A stretch of DNA of 64,000 bases from the NCBI GenBank assembly GCA_964291495.2, contig OZ219871.1, forward strand, positions 640,001-704,000. The letters are read 5' to 3'. The notes beneath the pieces were generated by a model that worked only from the letters and a program-made list of their open reading frames with translations, did no database searches and was not told the DNA's origin. Shown here in pieces: positions 4,879-50,128 of this stretch. The stretch comes from Dehalococcoidia bacterium (GTDB taxonomy: Bacteria > Chloroflexota > Dehalococcoidia > UBA2979). Position numbers and translations under genes: made by a program. Every line of letters starts with the position of its first letter. Position 1 is the first letter of the stretch.

Positions 4879-5337
4879 ATGACCGAGCAGCGGCACGGCG
4901 CCTACTACCTTCCGGACGGGGTTCCGCAGCCGGCGCCCGCTCCCGACGGGATGGACGCCCCCTACTGGGAGGCAACGCGCCGGCACGAGCTGGTGGTCCA
5001 GCACTGCGAGGCCTGCGAGCGGTTCCAGTGGGAGCCCGAGTGGATCTGCGGGGCCTGCCAGTCCTTCGACCTGGCCTGGCGCCCGGTTCCCGCCAGAGGC
5101 ACGATCTTCGCCTGGGAGCGCGTCTGGCACCCCGTCCACCCCGCACTCGCCGAGGGCGTCCCCTACCTCGTCGTGCTCGTCGAGCTGCCCGAGGCCGGCA
5201 ACGTCCGGATGGTGGGCAACCTCCTCGGGGATCCGCACCAACAGGTGCGGACCGGCGCGGAGGTCAACGCAGTCTTCGAGGACCACGAGGACGACGGCTA
5301 CACACTCGTCCAGTGGGAGCTTGCTTCCGCGAGCTGA
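4879..5337 (+). CDS. DUF35 family Zn-ribbon/OB-fold protein (thiolase partner)
   Basis: PYWEATRRHELVVQHCEAC...ICGAC, GTIFAW, PYLVVLVEL. Confidence 0.9.
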   Translation: MTEQRHGAYYLPDGVPQPAPAPDGMDAPYWEATRRHELVVQHCEACERFQWEPEWICGACQSFDLAWRPVPARGTIFAWERVWHPVHPALAEGVPYLVVLVELPEAGNVRMVGNLLGDPHQQVRTGAEVNAVFEDHEDDGYTLVQWELASAS

Positions 5338-8840: not shown

Positions 8841-9257
8841 TCAGCTCGCTGGACGGAAATAGGGTAGCGTGACGCCTTCCGCGAGGTCCCTGAAGACGAC
8901 CTCCACGGGCAGCCCGATGCGCACGTCGGCCGGCTCGCAATCCACGACGTTGCTCATCATGACTGGCCCCTCGTCCAGCCTGATCATCGCGATCACGTAG
9001 GGGGCGTCGTCAACCCAGGCCTCGCTGACCGGGCGGTGCACGACGGTGTAGGTGTAGACCTCGCCCCTGCCGCTCACCTCGGCCCAGTCGTAGTCCAGGC
9101 CCATGCAGTCCGGCGCGTGGCACATGGGGCTGGGGTAGAAGCGGAACGTCCCGCAGGCGTCGCAGCGCTGCAGGCGCAACTCGTGATTGTTCAGGGCATC
9201 CCAGTACGGCTCGGAGCCGGGCGTGAACTGGGGAAGCGGCTTTGCGAGGTCGGCCAC
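8841..9257 (-). CDS. DUF35 family Zn-ribbon/OB-fold protein
   Basis: PYWDALNNHELRLQRCDAC...CHAPDC, GEVYTYTVV, LDEGPVMMSNVV. Confidence 0.9.
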   Translation of the reverse strand: MADLAKPLPQFTPGSEPYWDALNNHELRLQRCDACGTFRFYPSPMCHAPDCMGLDYDWAEVSGRGEVYTYTVVHRPVSEAWVDDAPYVIAMIRLDEGPVMMSNVVDCEPADVRIGLPVEVVFRDLAEGVTLPYFRPAS

Positions 9258-10496: not shown

Positions 10497-10925
10497 TCAG
10501 GCCTCCGGTTCCGTGATGGGCCGGAAGAATGGCAATGTGACCTCGTCGGTCAGATCCTCGAAGACGACCTCCATCCGCATCCCGATCTTCACGTCGAACG
10601 CGGGGATGTCGACGGCCCGGCTGAACATCACGGGCCCCTCGTCCAGCTCGATCAGGACGAGGGCGTAGGGTGCGAGGTCCGCCCACATCTCGTTGGGCGC
10701 CCGCACGACGACCGTCAGCGTGTAGACCGTTCCCTTGCCGCTGGACTGCACCCAGTCGAAGTCCATCGAGAGGCAATCGAAGGCCTGGCAGATCGGGCCG
10801 GGATAGAAGCGATGGTACCCGCAGTCGCGGCAGCGCTGGATCAGCAACTCGTGCCGGCGGCAGCCCTCCCAGTACTCCTTCGAGTCGGGGGTGACGCCGG
10901 GAACCGGTCTGTTGTACTCGGCCAC
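10497..10925 (-). CDS. DUF35 family Zn-ribbon/OB-fold protein
   Basis: EYWEGCRRHELLIQRCRDC...CQAFDC, GTVYTLTVV, ELDEGP. Confidence 0.9.
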   Translation of the reverse strand: MAEYNRPVPGVTPDSKEYWEGCRRHELLIQRCRDCGYHRFYPGPICQAFDCLSMDFDWVQSSGKGTVYTLTVVVRAPNEMWADLAPYALVLIELDEGPVMFSRAVDIPAFDVKIGMRMEVVFEDLTDEVTLPFFRPITEPEA

Positions 10926-20614: not shown

Positions 20615-21061
20615 ATGGCGACCGACAGCGACGCAGGATCCGCCGAGTACCGCAGAGAGATCCCGATCCCCAGCCCCGTCTCGCAGCCCTACTGGGATGC
20701 CTGCCGGCGGCATGAACTGAGAGGGCAGCGCTGCCGCACGTGCAACTGGCTCTGGATGTATCCGAGCCGCATGTGCCACAACCCGGACTGCAACACCCTG
20801 GACGACTACGACTGGGAGCAACTGGCCGGGACCGGCACGGTCTGGACCTTCACCGTCAACCATCGCGCCCCCAACGCCGAGTGGGAGGACGACCTGCCCT
20901 ACGTCTTCGGAGTGATCGAGCTGGACGAGGGCGTCATGATCACCAGCAACGTGATCGGCTGCGACCCGAGCGAGGTGCACATCGGCATGCCCGTGGAGGT
21001 GGTCTTCGAGGACGTCTCCGACGAGATCTCCCTGCCGAAGTTCAGGCCGCGCTCGACCTGA
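20615..21061 (+). CDS. DUF35 family Zn-ribbon/OB-fold protein
   Basis: PYWDACRRHELRGQRCRTC...CHNPDC, GTVWTFTV, ELDEG. Confidence 0.9.
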   Translation: MATDSDAGSAEYRREIPIPSPVSQPYWDACRRHELRGQRCRTCNWLWMYPSRMCHNPDCNTLDDYDWEQLAGTGTVWTFTVNHRAPNAEWEDDLPYVFGVIELDEGVMITSNVIGCDPSEVHIGMPVEVVFEDVSDEISLPKFRPRST

Positions 21062-41930: not shown

Positions 41931-42344
41931 TTGGCCGAGTACAACAAGCCCATCCCCGACCCGGATCCAACCAACCAGGTCTTCTTCGACGGCGCGCGGG
42001 AGGGCAAGCTGATGCTCCCGCGCTGCACGACGTGCAACAAGGCGCACTTCTACCCCCGGATCATCTGCCCCTACTGCCACTCCAGCCAGATCGAGTGGTT
42101 CGAGGCCTCCGGCACCGGCTTCATCCACACCTACGCCGTCCAGCACATCGCCTTCGGCGGCTGGGCGGACGAGGCGCCCTACGTCACCGCCTACATCGAC
42201 CTCACCGAGGGCGACCGCATCTTCACGGTGCTCCGTGGCGTCGACCCGGAGAAGCCCGAGGAGATCGAGATCGGCGCCAGGGTCCAGGTGGAGTTCGACC
42301 AGGCGAGCGACGAGATCGCGATCCCGTTCTGGCGGGTCCTCTAG
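41931..42344 (+). CDS. DUF35 family Zn-ribbon/OB-fold protein
   Basis: FFDGAREGKLMLPRCTTC...YPRIICPYC, GFIHTY, DLTEG. TTG start after an AAGGAG RBS. Confidence 0.9.
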   Translation: MAEYNKPIPDPDPTNQVFFDGAREGKLMLPRCTTCNKAHFYPRIICPYCHSSQIEWFEASGTGFIHTYAVQHIAFGGWADEAPYVTAYIDLTEGDRIFTVLRGVDPEKPEEIEIGARVQVEFDQASDEIAIPFWRVL

Positions 42345-42374: not shown

Positions 42375-43586
42375 ATGCCTTTCGACCCATCCATGGAGGC
42401 TGCGATCGTCGGCGCGGCCGAGTCCGACGAGATCGGGTACATCGAACGCCCGGTCACGGCGATGCAGCTGCACATCGAAGCGATCCGCAACGTCTGCGCC
42501 CAGGCCGGCGTCAAGCCCTCGGAGATCGAGGGCGTCGCGGCCCCGTTCGTCGCCGACGGGGTCGCGGAGTACCTCGGCATCCACCCAAAGTGGATCGACA
42601 CGACGGCGGTCGGTGGCTGCTCGTACGAGATGCACGTGCACCACATGCTGTGCGCCATCGCGGCGGGCGTGATCGACCTCGGAGTGATCTCGCACGGACA
42701 GATCGGCTGGTCGCAGCGCAAGACCGGCGGCAAGGGGATCGGGCGGCGGCGGACCGACGACCCGTGGTCGCCGGAGTCACAGTTCGTGGAGCCGTACGGC
42801 AGCTGGGGCGCCCCCTTCGAGTACGCGCACGCGATGCGGCGGCACATGCACGAGTGGGGGACGACCAAGGAGGACTTCGCGCAGATCGCCGTCACCACGC
42901 GCGAGTGGGCCACGCTCAACCCGCGCGCCATCATGCACTCGAAGGAGACGAATCCGTTCGGCGGTCCGATCACGATCGACGACGTGCTCAACTCGCGCTG
43001 GATCACGTGGCCGCTCAATCTGCTCGACGTCTGCCTGGTGACGGACCACGGCGGCGCGGTGCTGCTCGCCTCGCGGGAGCGGGCGGAGAGCATGCCCACG
43101 ACGCCGGTCTGGATCGCCGGCGCCGGCGAGAACATGAGCCACCAGTTGATGCTGGAGATGGGCGACTTCACCGCCACCTCCGCGCTCGCCTCGGGCCAGG
43201 CCGCCTACCGCATGGCCGGCATGGGCGCGGACGAGATGGAGCTGGCGATGCTCTACGACTCGTTCACGATCACCGCCGCGATCACCGCCGAGATGCTCGC
43301 GCTCGCCCCTCGCGGGCAGGGGCCGAGCCTCTGGGAGGGCGGTAAGGCAGGCCCCGGCGGTTCCGGCATCCCGGTCAACACCAACGGCGGCGGCCTCTCC
43401 TTCAATCACAGCGGGATGTACGGCATGCAGCTCCTGATCGAGGCCTACCGCCAGCTCTCCGGCACGGCCGAGGACGGCGTGCACGGGCTCCCGGGCAAGC
43501 AGACCGGCGCCCGGACCTGCGTCGTCAACGGCACGGGCGGCGACCTCTCGGTCACCGGTACCCTCGTGCTGGTGGCCGACGAGTAG
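42375..43586 (+). CDS. Thiolase-fold protein (SCP2-type) retaining the N-terminal Cys
   Basis: DTTAVGGCSY, NPRA, LLDVCLVTDHGGA, LYDSFT, NTNGGGLS, CVVNGTGG. Confidence 0.9.
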   Translation: MPFDPSMEAAIVGAAESDEIGYIERPVTAMQLHIEAIRNVCAQAGVKPSEIEGVAAPFVADGVAEYLGIHPKWIDTTAVGGCSYEMHVHHMLCAIAAGVIDLGVISHGQIGWSQRKTGGKGIGRRRTDDPWSPESQFVEPYGSWGAPFEYAHAMRRHMHEWGTTKEDFAQIAVTTREWATLNPRAIMHSKETNPFGGPITIDDVLNSRWITWPLNLLDVCLVTDHGGAVLLASRERAESMPTTPVWIAGAGENMSHQLMLEMGDFTATSALASGQAAYRMAGMGADEMELAMLYDSFTITAAITAEMLALAPRGQGPSLWEGGKAGPGGSGIPVNTNGGGLSFNHSGMYGMQLLIEAYRQLSGTAEDGVHGLPGKQTGARTCVVNGTGGDLSVTGTLVLVADE

Positions 43587-46205: not shown

Positions 46206-47090
46206 CTAGCCCTGAGCCTCGGGGCCGAAGTCGTTGGTCAGCAGCGCGCCCAGCGTCCGCGGGAAGATCTCGAACATCTCGTCGATGGTCCAGCTCTCGC
46301 CTCGCGCGAAGGCCCGGGCCTCCACCTCCGGAATCGTGTAGAGCCCGACCTCGTTCCGCTCGATCTCGAAGTCCCGGCCGTTCACGTTCTGGGCCTCATC
46401 CGACGCCAGGTAGACCACCAGCGGACCGATCGCGCCGGGGTCGCCTCGCGCGACCTCCGGCTCCGCCCCGGGCTCGGCGTCGGGAGGCATCGTGAGGCGC
46501 GTGTCGGCGGAGGGGCGCAGCGCGTTGCAGGTCACGCCGTAGCGACCGAGGTCCATCGCCACGGTCCGCGTCAGTCCCACGATCCCTTCCTTGGCGGCGG
46601 CGTAGTTCGTCTGCCCGACGAAGCCGAGCCCGGAGATGGAACTGGTGTTGATGATCCGGCCGGAGCGCTGCTGGCGCATGACCACCGCGGCATGCCTGAT
46701 CGTGTTGAACGTGCCCGTGAGATGGACCGCGATGACCTGGTCCCACTCCTCGCGGGTCATGTTGAACACCATCCGGTCCCGCAGGATGCCGGCGTTGTTG
46801 ACCAGAATGTCCAGACGGCCGAACTCGTCCAGCGCTTGCTGGACCATCGCGCCGGCGGCCTCGAAGTCCGCGACGTTGCCGAAGTTCGCGACCGCGCGGC
46901 CGCCGGCCGCCGTGATCTCGTCCGCGACCTGCTGCGCCGGCGCGGAGTCCGACCCCTCGCCGGCGGTGCTCCCGCCGAGGTCGTTGACCACCACGGCTGC
47001 GCCTTCGCTTGCCAGCGCGAGCGCCTCCCCGCGGCCGATGCCCCGGCCGGCCCCGGTGACGATCGCAACCTTGCCGTCCAGCCGCCCCAC
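46206..47090 (-). CDS. SDR family oxidoreductase (peroxisomal MFE-2/hydroxyacyl-CoA dehydrogenase-like)
   Basis: LDGKVAIVTGAGRGIG, VVVNDLGG, LVNNAGILRDR, catalytic YAAAK. Confidence 0.92.
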   Translation of the reverse strand: MGRLDGKVAIVTGAGRGIGRGEALALASEGAAVVVNDLGGSTAGEGSDSAPAQQVADEITAAGGRAVANFGNVADFEAAGAMVQQALDEFGRLDILVNNAGILRDRMVFNMTREEWDQVIAVHLTGTFNTIRHAAVVMRQQRSGRIINTSSISGLGFVGQTNYAAAKEGIVGLTRTVAMDLGRYGVTCNALRPSADTRLTMPPDAEPGAEPEVARGDPGAIGPLVVYLASDEAQNVNGRDFEIERNEVGLYTIPEVEARAFARGESWTIDEMFEIFPRTLGALLTNDFGPEAQG

Positions 47091-47273
47091 AGCGCCTCGA
47101 TCCTCGCGCTGCGCCGCCCGAGGCGGGGACCCGCCTCTTCCCCCGGCGCGCAGCGGGCAGGATGGTAGCGGCGCGTTTGGCGCGCTGGCAATCGCTCGAA
47201 CCTCGCTGTTGACAGGCCGCGTACCGTCTCGCGTGAGCACGCGGCGCCGGGGGCGCACGGGAGGCTACGGACC

Positions 47274-48419
47274 ATGAGCTTGCGAGGACGGACCGCGATC
47301 GTCGGGTTCCATGAGCTGCCCACGAGGCGAGCGTATCCCGGTCGCAACACCTTCAGCGTGCTGGCGGAGGCCGCACGCGGCGCCATCAGCGACGCAGGCC
47401 TCAGGAAGGACGACATCGACGGGCTGATCTGCTCGGAGATCATGCCGATGACGCTCGCCGAGCACCTCAAGCTCAAGCTGCGCTTCACGGAATCGATGAC
47501 CGTGCAGGGCGCGAGCGGGGCGAACTCGATCGCAACCGCGGCGGCCGCGGTCCACGCGGGGCTGGCGAACTACGTGCTCTGCGTCTTCGGCGAGTCGATG
47601 CAGGGCGCGTTCCCCGCCTCCGTGCGTCCGACGGTCGTCGAGTGGGAGGACCCGTACGGGCCCGTGGTCGCGGCCAACGGGCCCTACGGGCTGATCAAAC
47701 AGCGCTACATGTTCGAGTTCGGCACGACGCAGGAACAGTTCGCGAAGTGCTCCGTGGACGAGCGGTTCAACGCCGCGGCGAACGAGAACGCGGTCTGGGC
47801 CGGGCAGCCGATCACCATCGAGGACGTGCTCAACTCGCGCTTCACGAACGACCCCCTGCACCTGCTGGAGAGCGTGATGCCCTGCTCCGGCGCGAACGCG
47901 GTGATCGTCACGTCGGCGGAGCGGGCGAAGGCGCTCCCGAACCCGCCCGTCTACATCCTCGGCGCGGGCGGCCCGGCCACCTCGCACTACGAGATCTGGC
48001 AAGAGGACCACATGACGACCAGCCCGGCGACGGTGTCCGCCCCGACGGCGCTGGACATGGCGCAGTGCAGCATCCGTGACGTCGAGTTCGCGCAGTTCTA
48101 CGACTGCTACACGATCCTGGTGATGATGACCCTCGAGGACGCCGGGATCTGCCCGAAGGGCGAGATCGGCGACTTCTACCAGGGGACGGACACCACGTTC
48201 AAGGGTGAGTTCCCGATCAACACGGACGGCGGTCAGATCGGAGCGGGGCAGCCCGGCGACGCCGGCGGCTTCCGCCACATCGTCGAGGCGACCCGCCAGA
48301 TCATGGGCCGCGCCGGCGAGCGCCAGGTGGAGCGCAGCGACCTCTGCCTGGTCAACGGCTGAGGGGGCTACGCAAGCGTCATGACGACGCTGGTGTTCGG
48401 TTCGAGCGCCACCCTCTAG
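47274..48419 (+). CDS. Thiolase-fold protein with an in-frame TGA at 48360-48362, candidate selenoprotein (ends at 48362 if TGA is a stop)
   Basis: TAIVG, EFGTTQEQFA, PLHLLE, FYDCYT, NTDGGQIG, EATRQIMG, then LCLVNG-TGA-GGYASVMTTLVFGSSATL-TAG. The read-through part aligns with paralog ends such as CVVNG-T-GGDLSVTGTLVL. Confidence 0.8.
48370..48396 (+). promoter_or_regulatory. Candidate bacterial SECIS-like hairpin
   Basis: AGCGTC(48375)-ATGAC-GACGCT(48391) is a perfect 6-bp stem separated from the TGA by 12 nt. It is extended by ACGC/GTGT across an A-G mismatch. Confidence 0.5.
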
Positions 48420-48487
48420 CTCCCACAAGCCAACTCCCGCCCGGGAACAACAAGCATCGAGGACGAGGATGAATGGGCGCCCGCCAC

Positions 48488-48614
48488 TCCCCTCTGGTCC
48501 CCCCGCCCCGAGGGTGAAGGAGGGCCCGACCCCCGAAGTTCCGTTGCGCCATCGGAGCGTTCGGAGGTGGGCGGAAGTCCTCTCCTCACCCCCGCCCTCT
48601 CCCCAGGGAGAGGG
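48488..48614 (-). repeat. REP/REPIN-like dispersed element, copy 1
   Basis: The reverse complement aligns along its length with 63504-63645. It contains the palindrome CCCTCTCCC-CA-GGGAGAGGG. Confidence 0.75.
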
Positions 48615-48635
48615 TGCCGGACAGGGAGGGCACCT

Positions 48636-49346
48636 GTGCATGTGATCGTGACGGGAGCGGCGCAGGGGATTGGCGAGGGCGTCGCGCGACACCTCGCCGC
48701 GGAAGGCCATCGCCTCGTGCTCGCCGACATCCAGGCCGCTGCCGTGGCTGCGGTGGCGCGTGACCTCGGGGCATCGAGCGTCGAGGTCGACATCGCAAGC
48801 CCCGAGAGCGCGCGCGAGATGGCGCGCCGCGCGATCGACACGCTCGGTCACGTGGACGCCATCGTCAACGTCGCAGGGCTCGACGCCCCGCCGGGCACCG
48901 CGCTGACAACCGACGATGAGCTGTGGCGGCAGGTGGTGGACGTCGACCTCTCGGGACCGTGGTGGTGCACGAAGGCGCTGCTCGAACACTTCGTCGAGCG
49001 AGGAGGCGGCCGCGTCGTGATCATCAGCTCCGTCGCCGCCTGGCGCGGGCACGACCGGATCACTCCCGCCTACCACGCCGCCAAGGCGGGGCTCCACGGC
49101 CTCGTGCTGGCCCTCGCGCACCAGCTGGAGCGCTCCGGCATCCTGGTCAACGCGATCGCTCCGGGCGCCACGGGCACCGGGGCGTTTACCGACTGGCCCG
49201 AAGCCGAGCTCGAGCGAAACGCACCGCTCGGGCTGGGCGGCGCCGAGCCGATCGCGCGCATGGTGGCGCACCTGCTGGGCCCCGGCGGCGATTGGATCAG
49301 CGGAGCGGTCCTGAACGTCAGCGGCGGCAACGTCAAGGGTCACTAG
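48636..49346 (+). CDS. SDR family oxidoreductase
   Basis: GTG start after a GGGAGG RBS; VIVTGAAQGIG, NVAG, YHAAK, VNAIAPG, ISGAVLNVSGG. Confidence 0.88.
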   Translation: MHVIVTGAAQGIGEGVARHLAAEGHRLVLADIQAAAVAAVARDLGASSVEVDIASPESAREMARRAIDTLGHVDAIVNVAGLDAPPGTALTTDDELWRQVVDVDLSGPWWCTKALLEHFVERGGGRVVIISSVAAWRGHDRITPAYHAAKAGLHGLVLALAHQLERSGILVNAIAPGATGTGAFTDWPEAELERNAPLGLGGAEPIARMVAHLLGPGGDWISGAVLNVSGGNVKGH

Positions 49347-49399: not shown

Positions 49400-50128
49400 T
49401 CAGGATGCGACGGGTGCGGCCGGCTGGACGACGGCGGGCGCCAGCTCCGGCACCTGCGCCGCGAGTTCCATGCCTTCCTCGATGATCTCGGTGAGGCGCT
49501 GCAGGTCGATCAGCCCGCAGAGCAGCACGGAGCGAGCGGTGACCCTCGCCACGATCAGCCGATCGTGTTTTCTTGCATCGAACCAGGCGACCGGGCTTCC
49601 GACGACCCCGAACACGAACTCCGTCATGAGTTCGAGGTTATCGACCCTCACGGTTCCTTCCTCGCTGGCGAGGTTGAGGTAGCGCCCGTACCAGCCCTGA
49701 AGCTCGCGGCGCTTCTCCCAGAACCCCTTGAAGCGTGGGCGCTGGGCGTCAGGGAGGCGGGCGAGCAGCGCGAGGTTGTACGGCCCCGAGCAGTAGTTGC
49801 GGACATCGAGGTAGGTCAGCGCCCAGAGTCGGGCCGCCCCACTCGCACCAGCGACGTCGAGCAAGCGCGCTACTTGCAATGGAGCGTCGACGGTGCGATC
49901 GAGCAGCTCCGCGAGGATGTCGTCCTTGCGCGCGAAGTAGTGATAGAGCGAGCCCTGGCGCAACCCCGCCGCCTCGGCGATCTCGCGGGTGGTGGTCCCA
50001 CGGAAGCCGTGCTCGGTGAACAGTCGCCCTGCCTCGAGCAGGATGTGCTCCGCCGGCTCGATGTCGAGTGTGCTCTCGACGGCTCGAGGGCGCCCGATAC
50101 GTCGACCGCTCGGCTCGCTGCCGCTCAT
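49400..50128 (-). CDS. TetR/AcrR family transcriptional regulator
   Basis: GRPR, LFTEHGFRGTTTREIAEAAGLRQGSLYHYFARKDDIL. Confidence 0.92.
   Translation of the reverse strand: MSGSEPSGRRIGRPRAVESTLDIEPAEHILLEAGRLFTEHGFRGTTTREIAEAAGLRQGSLYHYFARKDDILAELLDRTVDAPLQVARLLDVAGASGAARLWALTYLDVRNYCSGPYNLALLARLPDAQRPRFKGFWEKRRELQGWYGRYLNLASEEGTVRVDNLELMTEFVFGVVGSPVAWFDARKHDRLIVARVTARSVLLCGLIDLQRLTEIIEEGMELAAQVPELAPAVVQPAAPVAS

Follow-up and report, generated by a model that had tools for sequence, protein, structure and literature searches.

A gene at positions 47274 to 48419 of the forward strand in a 64,000-nucleotide stretch of Dehalococcoidia DNA (assembly GCA_964291495.2, contig OZ219871.1, positions 640,001 to 704,000; this whole stretch is referred to as the window) very probably inserts selenocysteine (Sec) at an in-frame UGA, codon 363, as judged from comparative sequence data. 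Our reading as a whole, which we hold with good confidence, is that the gene would encode a 381-residue Sec protein made by the SelB route, that this protein would belong to the Sal/Ltp2-like branch of the thiolase superfamily, and that its selenolate would serve as a catalytic group. An original prediction, made from the letters of the window alone, had proposed that the UGA is decoded as Sec within a motif NG-U-GG, and this proposal is supported by the homologs, by the Sec machinery of the genome and by a hairpin that follows the UGA.

The open reading frame (ORF) that starts at ATG 47274 runs into TGA 48360-48362 after ...DLCLVNG, and the frame then reads GGYASVMTTLVFGSSATL to a TAG. The features of the gene are given below, where CtSal denotes the bile-acid side-chain retro-aldolase of Comamonas testosteroni (structure 9MYR), AF2 an AlphaFold2 model and SECIS a selenocysteine insertion sequence.

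47260 to 47264, forward strand: ribosome-binding site GGAGG, 9 nt before the ATG (sequence inspection)
47274 to 48419, forward strand: full coding sequence of the thiolase-fold predicted selenoprotein, 381 residues, Sec at 363 (translation)
47508 to 47510, forward strand: codon of Gly79, at the site of the thiolase nucleophilic Cys and equivalent to CtSal Gly89 (phmmer to 9myr, hhalign)
48099 to 48110, forward strand: Y276-D277-C278-Y279, the YDCY motif of CtSal with Tyr302/Cys304 (alignment to 9MYR)
48360 to 48362, forward strand: in-frame UGA, predicted Sec U363, opposite CtSal Thr389 and two residues before Gly391
48363 to 48374, forward strand: the 12 nt that separate the hairpin from the UGA (sequence inspection)
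48363 to 48416, forward strand: the 18 post-Sec codons GGYASVMTTLVFGSSATL, with a CxG-type loop and the last beta-strand (conservation, AF2)
48375 to 48391, forward strand: SECIS-like hairpin, 6-bp stem AGCGUC/GACGCU and 5-nt loop AUGAC (folding, shuffles, pair counts)
48417 to 48419, forward strand: stop codon TAG of the read-through frame (translation)

The frame continues to look like a gene beyond the TGA. The G+C content at third codon positions is 0.95 over the full length of the read-through frame, as in genes of this 71% G+C genome, and the Pfam domain Thiolase_C_1 (1.7e-45) covers residues 234-376, that is, across the TGA. The AF2 model, built from a 31-sequence alignment (mean predicted local distance difference test, pLDDT, 88.8; predicted template modelling score, pTM, 0.91), places the last two beta-strands at residues 357-364 and 369-376. 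Since the second of these strands follows codon 363, truncation there would lose a core strand of the fold. Logan contigs from two public sequencing runs of different studies match the region without any difference (X1 over 47200-48562, X2 over 47935-48600), and both contain the TGA, although X1 may be the source sample of the window assembly. An RNA run (X19) gave short contigs only, of which a 153-nt piece ends at 48344, before the TGA, and which have no bearing on expression or read-through. Three observations from which the original prediction had started stood up: the TGA at 48360-48362 with the frame open to the TAG ending at 48419, the 6-bp hairpin 12 nt past the TGA (AGCGTC at 48375-48380, ATGAC at 48381-48385, GACGCT at 48386-48391), and the loss of a core strand if the TGA were a stop.

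We compared the read-through protein with 41 related genomes and with public genomes scanned at one genome per species; source labels of relatives read Dehalococcoidia, Chloroflexota or SAR202. If the UGA is read as Sec, the TGA and the frame behind it should persist in homologs, and this was found to be the case. The identical column, VNG-U-GG, holds a TGA in 38 distinct copies of the gene, which come from 16 of the 41 genomes; in these copies the tail continues as GGxxSxMxxLVLG... and is closed by TAA or TAG. By identity to the window protein they form paralog groups of 91-97%, 65-71%, 47-60% and 43-44%, and the source genome itself has three of the copies (the window gene, C5:1035229 and C5:178843). 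The public scan yielded 86 copies in 79 loci, with TGA in 57 and Asn codons in 29 at this column, and TGA forms were also seen in metagenome-assembled genomes (MAGs) labelled Actinomycetota (L066) and Entotheonellaceae (L103). Selection on the tail was evident from the ratio of nonsynonymous to synonymous polymorphism (pN/pS), which was 0.47 over the first 14 of the 18 tail codons, and from seven near-invariant residues (Gly+1, Gly+2, Ser+5, Met+7, Leu+10, Leu+12 and Gly+13), each of which is written with two to seven different codons. Because of this low pN/pS and because the near-invariant residues use varied codons, we conclude that the tail is translated.

Protein databases tell a different story at first sight. 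When a collection of 5.8 billion proteins was searched and the best 120 of 1638 strong matches were inspected, 109 were found to stop exactly at ...NG, three ended elsewhere, and eight were full-length, the residue at the Sec position being Asn in five, Ser in one and Cys in two. That gene callers annotate a stop here is the point in favour of a genuine stop, that is, of a 362-residue product, a pseudogene or a sequencing error. We consider this explanation extremely improbable, since the 18-codon tail is conserved as protein down to 43% identity, since a core beta-strand would go, and since independent assemblies and 85 distinct proteins show the TGA. The 109 entries rather indicate that gene callers cut the proteins at this codon. 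Sequencing error and pseudogene as such were ruled out by the recurrence of the TGA across genomes together with the Logan contigs. The original prediction had named two signs of a chance mutation, a residue other than Cys in homologs and a TGA unique to this genome; the former was found, as non-TGA homologs mostly have Asn, Thr or Ser, and the latter was not. Homologs with Cys at the site, which it had also envisaged, do exist, but they are rare (P0071 and P0077 among the best 120 of the 1638 matches, and P0140, one of 150 distant representatives). One ortholog (L033, G017:C4:339432-340235) has the TGA plus an in-frame TAG, with an N-terminal part that matches separately, and is probably a decayed copy. 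The runs that contain this stretch or its relatives are mostly labelled as sponge, coral or marine metagenomes, and the sponge run X4 has related contigs.

All parts of the Sec machinery that the decoding would need are present in the source genome: selA, selB and selD scored above curated cut-offs, and tRNA-Sec was found at 77 bits. ARAGORN reported 56 tRNAs, with one UCA anticodon (SeC) and no other suppressor, so that another suppressor tRNA was excluded. A reassigned genetic code was excluded as well, since TGA ends 557 of the 1359 long ORFs with high third-position G+C in this genome and is thus a normal stop in a standard code. Among the 41 relatives, selA was matched in 35 (34 above the curated cut-off) and tRNA-Sec in 34. 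The 16 genomes with TGA forms have tRNA-Sec in 16 of 16 cases and selA in 15, the exception being a genome that is 71% complete, while two near-complete relatives without selA and tRNA-Sec (G020 and G039) carry Ser and Asn forms. Because Sec use is common in the class, this co-occurrence discriminates only weakly. The source genome also has an in-frame TGA in selD (G000:C5:1608812-1609747, motif CGG-U-AGK) and in an fdhA-like gene (G000:C6:618830-620725, motif CNRT-U-HAPS), both at classical Sec positions, which means that the organism has further selenoproteins. Two same-genus genomes have two equal-scoring tRNA-Sec genes about 1.1 kb apart (G004, C1:1964265 and 1965444; G017, C3:762282 and 763377), and G014 has two tRNA-Sec matches far apart (C4:1032060 and 1139851; 73.1 and 55.8 bits).

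A hairpin of at least 6 bp, in the register of the window gene or shifted by 1-2 nt, follows the TGA in nearly all TGA forms and is not found in the Asn, Thr or Ser forms. As the hairpins stand in shifted registers, we used folding of each sequence separately, synonymous-codon shuffles (200 per sequence) and pair counts in a fixed register. The mean local folding free energy was -11.1 kcal/mol in 58 distinct TGA forms versus -5.7 in 39 distinct non-TGA forms. Relative to the shuffles, TGA forms were more stable than their encoded peptide would require (mean z = -1.77, with 41% reaching p <= 0.05), whereas non-TGA forms were not (mean z = +0.25, none reaching p <= 0.05). An 84%-identical Asn paralog even encodes the same SVMTTL peptide with codons that disrupt the stem. 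In the fixed 6-bp register, 75.9% of cells pair, compared with 69.1 +/- 1.4% after shuffling, a value reached by 0 of 500 shuffles, and pairing drops to 17-49% when the partner is slid. Two inner pairs covary, namely 20-28 (UA in 21, AU in 18) and 21-27 (GC in 26, CG in 11), so that both TGA-specific stability and compensatory pairs back the hairpin of the original prediction. The geometry of the window gene, a UGA followed by a 12-nt spacer, a 6-bp stem and a 5-nt loop, is that of the fdhA gene of the same genome (stem GUCGCC/GGCGAU), and after the selD UGA the spacer measures 10 nt, the stem 6 bp and the loop 4 nt. Codon +7 (48381-48383), a Met AUG inside the hairpin loop, is present in 56 of the 58 TGA forms; Gln or Glu is usual at this codon in the basal Asn forms, and recent Sec losers mostly retain Met.

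The comparative data establish that the tail is translated and leave the identity of the inserted residue to other evidence, which gives some room to an explanation in which a near-cognate standard tRNA (e.g. Trp, Cys or Arg) reads the UGA, aided by the hairpin and without selenium. Trp is found at the Sec column in one distant representative, and in none of the close-family non-TGA homologs. Several observations make this explanation very unlikely: tRNA-Sec is present in the source genome and in all 16 genomes with TGA forms, genomes that lack the machinery have sense codons, the hairpin has the geometry of that at the FdhA Sec codon, no other UCA-anticodon tRNA exists, and a second TGA (see below) stands in place of a Cys with proven catalytic function. 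We regard the insertion of Sec at codon 363 as highly likely.

The fold of the protein was assessed by sequence and structure comparison. The nearest solved relative is 9MYR chain A, CtSal, by sequence (E = 2.2e-78, phmmer) as well as by structure (Foldseek template modelling score 0.90), followed by 4U4E and the Ltp2 aldolase 6OK1. The protein most likely belongs to the DUF35-associated, Sal/Ltp2-like branch of the thiolase superfamily. The original prediction of a thiolase-fold enzyme thus stands, with the refinement that the nearest characterised relatives are the retro-aldolases Sal and Ltp2 and not thiolases. It had also noted that the nucleophilic Cys of thiolases is missing, which agrees with our alignments: hhalign comparison with three classical thiolases of the same genome put Gly79 opposite this Cys and GQPG opposite GHPVG, and BLASTP comparison with the window thiolase at 42375 put Ala80 opposite its Cys. 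Gly79 is near-invariant in the family alignment A1.

In the alignment to CtSal, Gly79 and YDCY 276-279 are matched by the corresponding CtSal residues, Q321 and Q326 by Gln347 and Gln352, U363 by Thr389 and G365 by Gly391. CtSal Gln161, a proposed part of the oxyanion hole, aligns with Ala134, next to which lies Asn135. For CtSal, the available text of the structural study describes Tyr302 and Cys304 of YDCY as essential and a Gly at the position of the thiolase nucleophile, and it suggests that Gln347 and Gln352 may activate Cys304 and that the Gly391 backbone nitrogen and Gln161 form the oxyanion hole (PMC12329534). Classical thiolases have their acid/base Cys in the CxG motif of the C-beta4/C-beta5 loop, whose main-chain nitrogen serves an oxyanion hole (PMC6790690). 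In the AF2 strands the end of the penultimate strand reads N-G-G in Asn forms and U-G-G in Sec forms, and a structure-based alignment equates the CXG at 378-380 of the Zoogloea ramigera thiolase with NGG of a mycobacterial thiolase-like protein (PMC3406046, available portion). By analogy, U363 likely occupies the position equivalent to Cys378 (CxG), as suggested by the motif and topology, by the Gly391 match and by that alignment of another protein. The placement of the UGA in the CxG loop, which the original prediction had proposed, therefore fits the topology and the equation of NGG with CXG in the accessible part of PMC3406046, while our own profile alignment ends at residue 350.

A second predicted Sec site was apparent from the fetched loci. 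The codon for the catalytic Cys of YDCY is TGA, giving YDUYT, in 31 of 134 copies, the remaining site-1 codons being TGC/TGT (97) and others (six). Examples of this second TGA, besides 28 other copies, are:

L044, 2344-2346: TGA at the YDCY Cys codon
L074, 1746-1748: TGA at the YDCY Cys codon
L074, 3003-3005: TGA at the YDCY Cys codon

With site 1 denoting the YDCY codon and site 2 the codon of U363, the 130 copies that could be scored (in which some rows are the same gene fetched via two routes) have the states C,U (61), U,U (30), C,N (33), A/P,N (3) and S,S/T (3). A TGA at site 1 was always accompanied by a TGA at site 2 (30 of 30 scorable copies). About 12 nt past the YDU TGA lies a hairpin, UCGAGGC-CGUGA-GCCUCGA. 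Its free energy is -11.4 in the 31 TGA forms versus -8.3 in the 81 Cys forms, but the stability does not exceed the synonymous-codon expectation (z +0.75) and therefore is not independent evidence. Several database representatives end at ...FYD, which indicates that gene calling cut them at the first TGA. The two forms with Cys at site 2 among the 120 matches combine YDGYA with NG-C-GG, so that the sole thiol stands in the CxG loop, like in classical thiolases; the thiol has in effect moved to that loop. In the Asn paralogs that are 82-84% identical to the window gene the motif is YDPYT, and in the Asn partners of tandem U,U genes it is YDAYT; these copies lost both groups.

We analysed 131 distinct proteins in a quick IQ-TREE phylogeny (LG+G4, Shimodaira-Hasegawa-like approximate likelihood ratio support, SH-aLRT, only) rooted on the Ser/Thr forms, in which the rooting and the placement of long branches are uncertain. 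C,N forms from MAGs labelled Binatia, Deltaproteobacteria, Syntrophomonadaceae and others lie at the base, and all 85 Sec-containing proteins fall into one 103-row clade (support 90), inside which Asn, Ser and Cys forms are nested. The tree requires C,U and U,U to have interchanged at least 8 to 10 times. The window gene clusters with three orthologs and next with P,N paralogs (support 100). Provided that the rooting is right, the sequences suggest that site-2 Sec arose on an Asn background and that losses usually went back to Asn and not to Cys. One Asn paralog (G000:C5:712051-713187), about 8 kb past the window end, is 82% identical to the window protein, has YDPYT and is directly preceded by a DUF35 gene; this paralog may be a non-catalytic partner subunit. 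That DUF35 gene is:

G000:C5, 711771-711971: DUF35 gene before the Asn paralog

Tandem pairs of Sec-containing thiolase-like genes occur in same-genus genomes (L047, L048, L049, L050, L051 and L052); at L047, the sole tandem locus examined, each gene is followed by its own DUF35 gene of about 140 amino acids. At L044 and L101 the pair consists of a U,U gene and an A,N gene.

How such a protein might work can be proposed from these correspondences. UGA363 would be decoded by the standard bacterial route through tRNA-Sec and SelB, with the 17-nt hairpin that lies 12 nt further on as the directing signal. A selenolate at the CxG position would then be the active-site group that moves the alpha-carbon proton of an acyl-coenzyme A (acyl-CoA) enolate, acting with, or in place of, Cys/Sec278, and the protein keeps the Tyr/Cys dyad of YDCY with which CtSal carries out retro-aldol cleavage of beta-hydroxyacyl-CoA. 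Candidate reactions are a retro-aldol cleavage like that of Sal and a thiolysis in which Sec would be the nucleophile. The sequences show a conserved recoded UGA, a translated tail, the hairpin, the Sec machinery and the positions of fold and motifs; that selenium is incorporated, that U363 lies near C278 in space, what the Sec does chemically and on which substrate are points that we infer, and an active-site location of U363 is likely.

The main alternative, which is compatible with catalysis, is that Sec is inserted and acts as a redox switch or protector, with a reversible U363-Cys278 selenenylsulfide (a diselenide in the double-Sec forms) that would gate or shield the active site when conditions are oxidising. 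Known selenoproteins are nearly all redox proteins with Sec near Cys (UxxC, CxxU), as far as the accessible text of two reviews goes (PMC9312934, PMC13188914). The two sites correspond to the alternative acid/base Cys positions of the superfamily and so should be close to each other, and the joint loss of both residues in the P,N and A,N paralogs fits a coupled pair. Nevertheless, G,C forms (YDGY plus NG-C-GG) keep the site-2 Cys without a partner thiol in the YDC loop, Cys seldom substitutes for Sec at site 2, and a diselenide is very hard to reduce. We regard this alternative as rather unlikely. The catalytic role of the selenolate is favoured because natural variants carry the sole thiol at either site. 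A bolder proposal is that there is a large unrecognised family of thiolase-fold C-C bond enzymes which use one or two catalytic selenolates at the two alternative acid/base Cys positions of the superfamily (UGG in the CxG loop, YDU in the HDCF-type loop), in which the site-2 Sec arose on Asn and can scarcely be replaced by Cys; in its boldest form, the Sec would be an acyl-accepting nucleophile that restores thiolytic ('selenolytic') cleavage to a scaffold whose canonical nucleophilic Cys was lost. This proposal is possible, though on balance we doubt it.

A number of points weigh against the reading of the window gene as a catalytic selenoprotein. The presence of selenium in the protein is a deduction from sequence. 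The Cys counterpart is rare, with non-TGA relatives having mostly Asn, then Thr or Ser, and the column is variable in distant relatives (N, T, S, V, Q, L, H and others), so that it is not universally catalytic. The hhalign alignment to classical thiolases spans residues 24-350 only, short of the CxG loop, and the equivalence of U363 and Cys378 rests on topology, the Gly391 correspondence and an alignment of a different protein. As for the hairpin, its statistics overstate independence because they come from sequences related to one another; RNAalifold gave no consensus for the 58 distinct TGA-downstream sequences, because subgroups use registers shifted by 1-2 nt; and the G-U of the Escherichia coli SECIS loop is absent from the loop of the window hairpin. 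Finally, no DUF35 gene adjoins the window gene, the nearest being at 42096-42299, before the thiolase at 42375.

This last point touches on genomic context. In each of the 7 related loci tested, the thiolase-like gene is immediately followed by a DUF35 ORF (zinc ribbon and OB fold), and DUF35 genes adjoin both other Sec paralogs and the Asn paralog of the source genome. The window has five of the genome's 29 DUF35 OB-fold matches, which stand beside several thiolase-like genes in a dense cluster of pairs. These matches and the immediate neighbours of the window gene are:

5077 to 5280: DUF35 match
8889 to 9086: DUF35 match
10557 to 10754: DUF35 match
20813 to 21010: DUF35 match
42096 to 42299: DUF35 match
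46206 to 47258, reverse strand: upstream divergent short-chain dehydrogenase/reductase (Pfam adh_short, 1.7e-45)
48567 to 49346, forward strand: downstream short-chain dehydrogenase/reductase (Pfam adh_short_C2, 7.5e-47)
49400 to 50128, reverse strand: TetR-family regulator (Pfam TetR_N, 5.9e-16)

The original prediction knew of no characterised Sec thiolase or aldolase, and the consulted portions of selenoproteome reviews up to 2026 contain none either: neither a thiolase-fold selenoprotein nor a CoA-thioester C-C bond enzyme is tabulated in the accessible parts of the 2022 (PMC9312934) and 2026 (PMC13188914) reviews. Full-text literature on selenocysteine and thiolase, on selenoprotein families and SECIS, and on Dehalococcoidia/SAR202 selenoproteins likewise gave no Sec thiolase among the papers listed. 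No relevant mention of a thiolase, aldolase or acetyltransferase came up in the main texts of these two reviews, of BSepDB (PMC13326102), of deep-Sep (PMC12013277) or of a 2022 preprint on eight new selenoprotein families; in the 2026 review this also holds for lipid-transfer, SCP2 and sterol. The main text of the Global Ocean Sampling (GOS) study (PMC2398784) mentions no thiolase, acetyltransferase, acetyl-CoA, lipid-transfer, acyl-CoA or crotonase, aldolase not having been searched.

If Sec were confirmed, the protein would be the first genetically encoded selenoenzyme of the thiolase superfamily, and selenium biology would gain a member outside the usual redox proteins; if the reading as a catalytic-selenolate family were true, the family would provide the first case of a selenium-dependent CoA-thioester enzyme that is not a redox enzyme. 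The family is abundant, with three copies in the source genome, more in some relatives and the majority of the closest database matches, and it is systematically mis-annotated, its proteins being cut at ...VNG or ...FYD in Dehalococcoidia/SAR202-type and some other MAGs. The natural two-site series C,N; C,U; U,U; G,C; and P/A,N is a variant set for questions of selenolate versus thiolate in the acid/base or nucleophilic catalysis of reactions on CoA thioesters. The finding also bears on the breakdown of complex organic acids and on the selenium demand of these bacteria of sponge and reef metagenomes.

Among known systems, CtSal resembles the window protein in its thiolase fold, in the Gly that stands for the nucleophile, in YDCY, in the Gln pair (Q321 and Q326 here) and in the G-G after the Sec position. 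It differs in having Thr389 where the window protein has Sec, and Gln161 where the window protein has Ala134. Moreover, CtSal has a bound partner, the DUF35 domain of Shy, whereas no DUF35 gene adjoins the window gene, and the CtSal host is a steroid-degrading proteobacterium while the window host is a Dehalococcoidia MAG. Classical thiolases of the Z. ramigera type share the fold and, if U363 is placed as proposed above, would also share a chalcogen residue at the end of C-beta4 followed by x-G, in a loop whose main-chain nitrogen serves an oxyanion hole (PMC6790690, PMC3406046); they have the CxS nucleophile, GHP, NEAF and the acid/base Cys378 where the window protein has Gly79, GQP, YDCY and, by that placement, Sec. 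The SCP2-thiolases and TbSLP, structural neighbours of the window protein, take their acid/base Cys from an HDCF/YDCF-type loop and are without a chalcogen in the CxG loop, but the SCP2-thiolases retain the nucleophilic Cys. The selenium-containing thiolase of Clostridium kluyveri reportedly carries selenomethionine, incorporated non-specifically, and not a UGA-encoded Sec. The reviewed selenoprotein families are almost all redox or chalcogen-handling proteins in the accessible text of the reviews (PMC9312934, PMC13188914), whereas the sense counterpart of the Sec in the present family is mainly Asn and not Cys. In decoding, the window gene resembles fdhA and selD of the same genome, which likewise have an in-frame UGA with a short hairpin 10-12 nt on within the coding region and share the Sec machinery with it.

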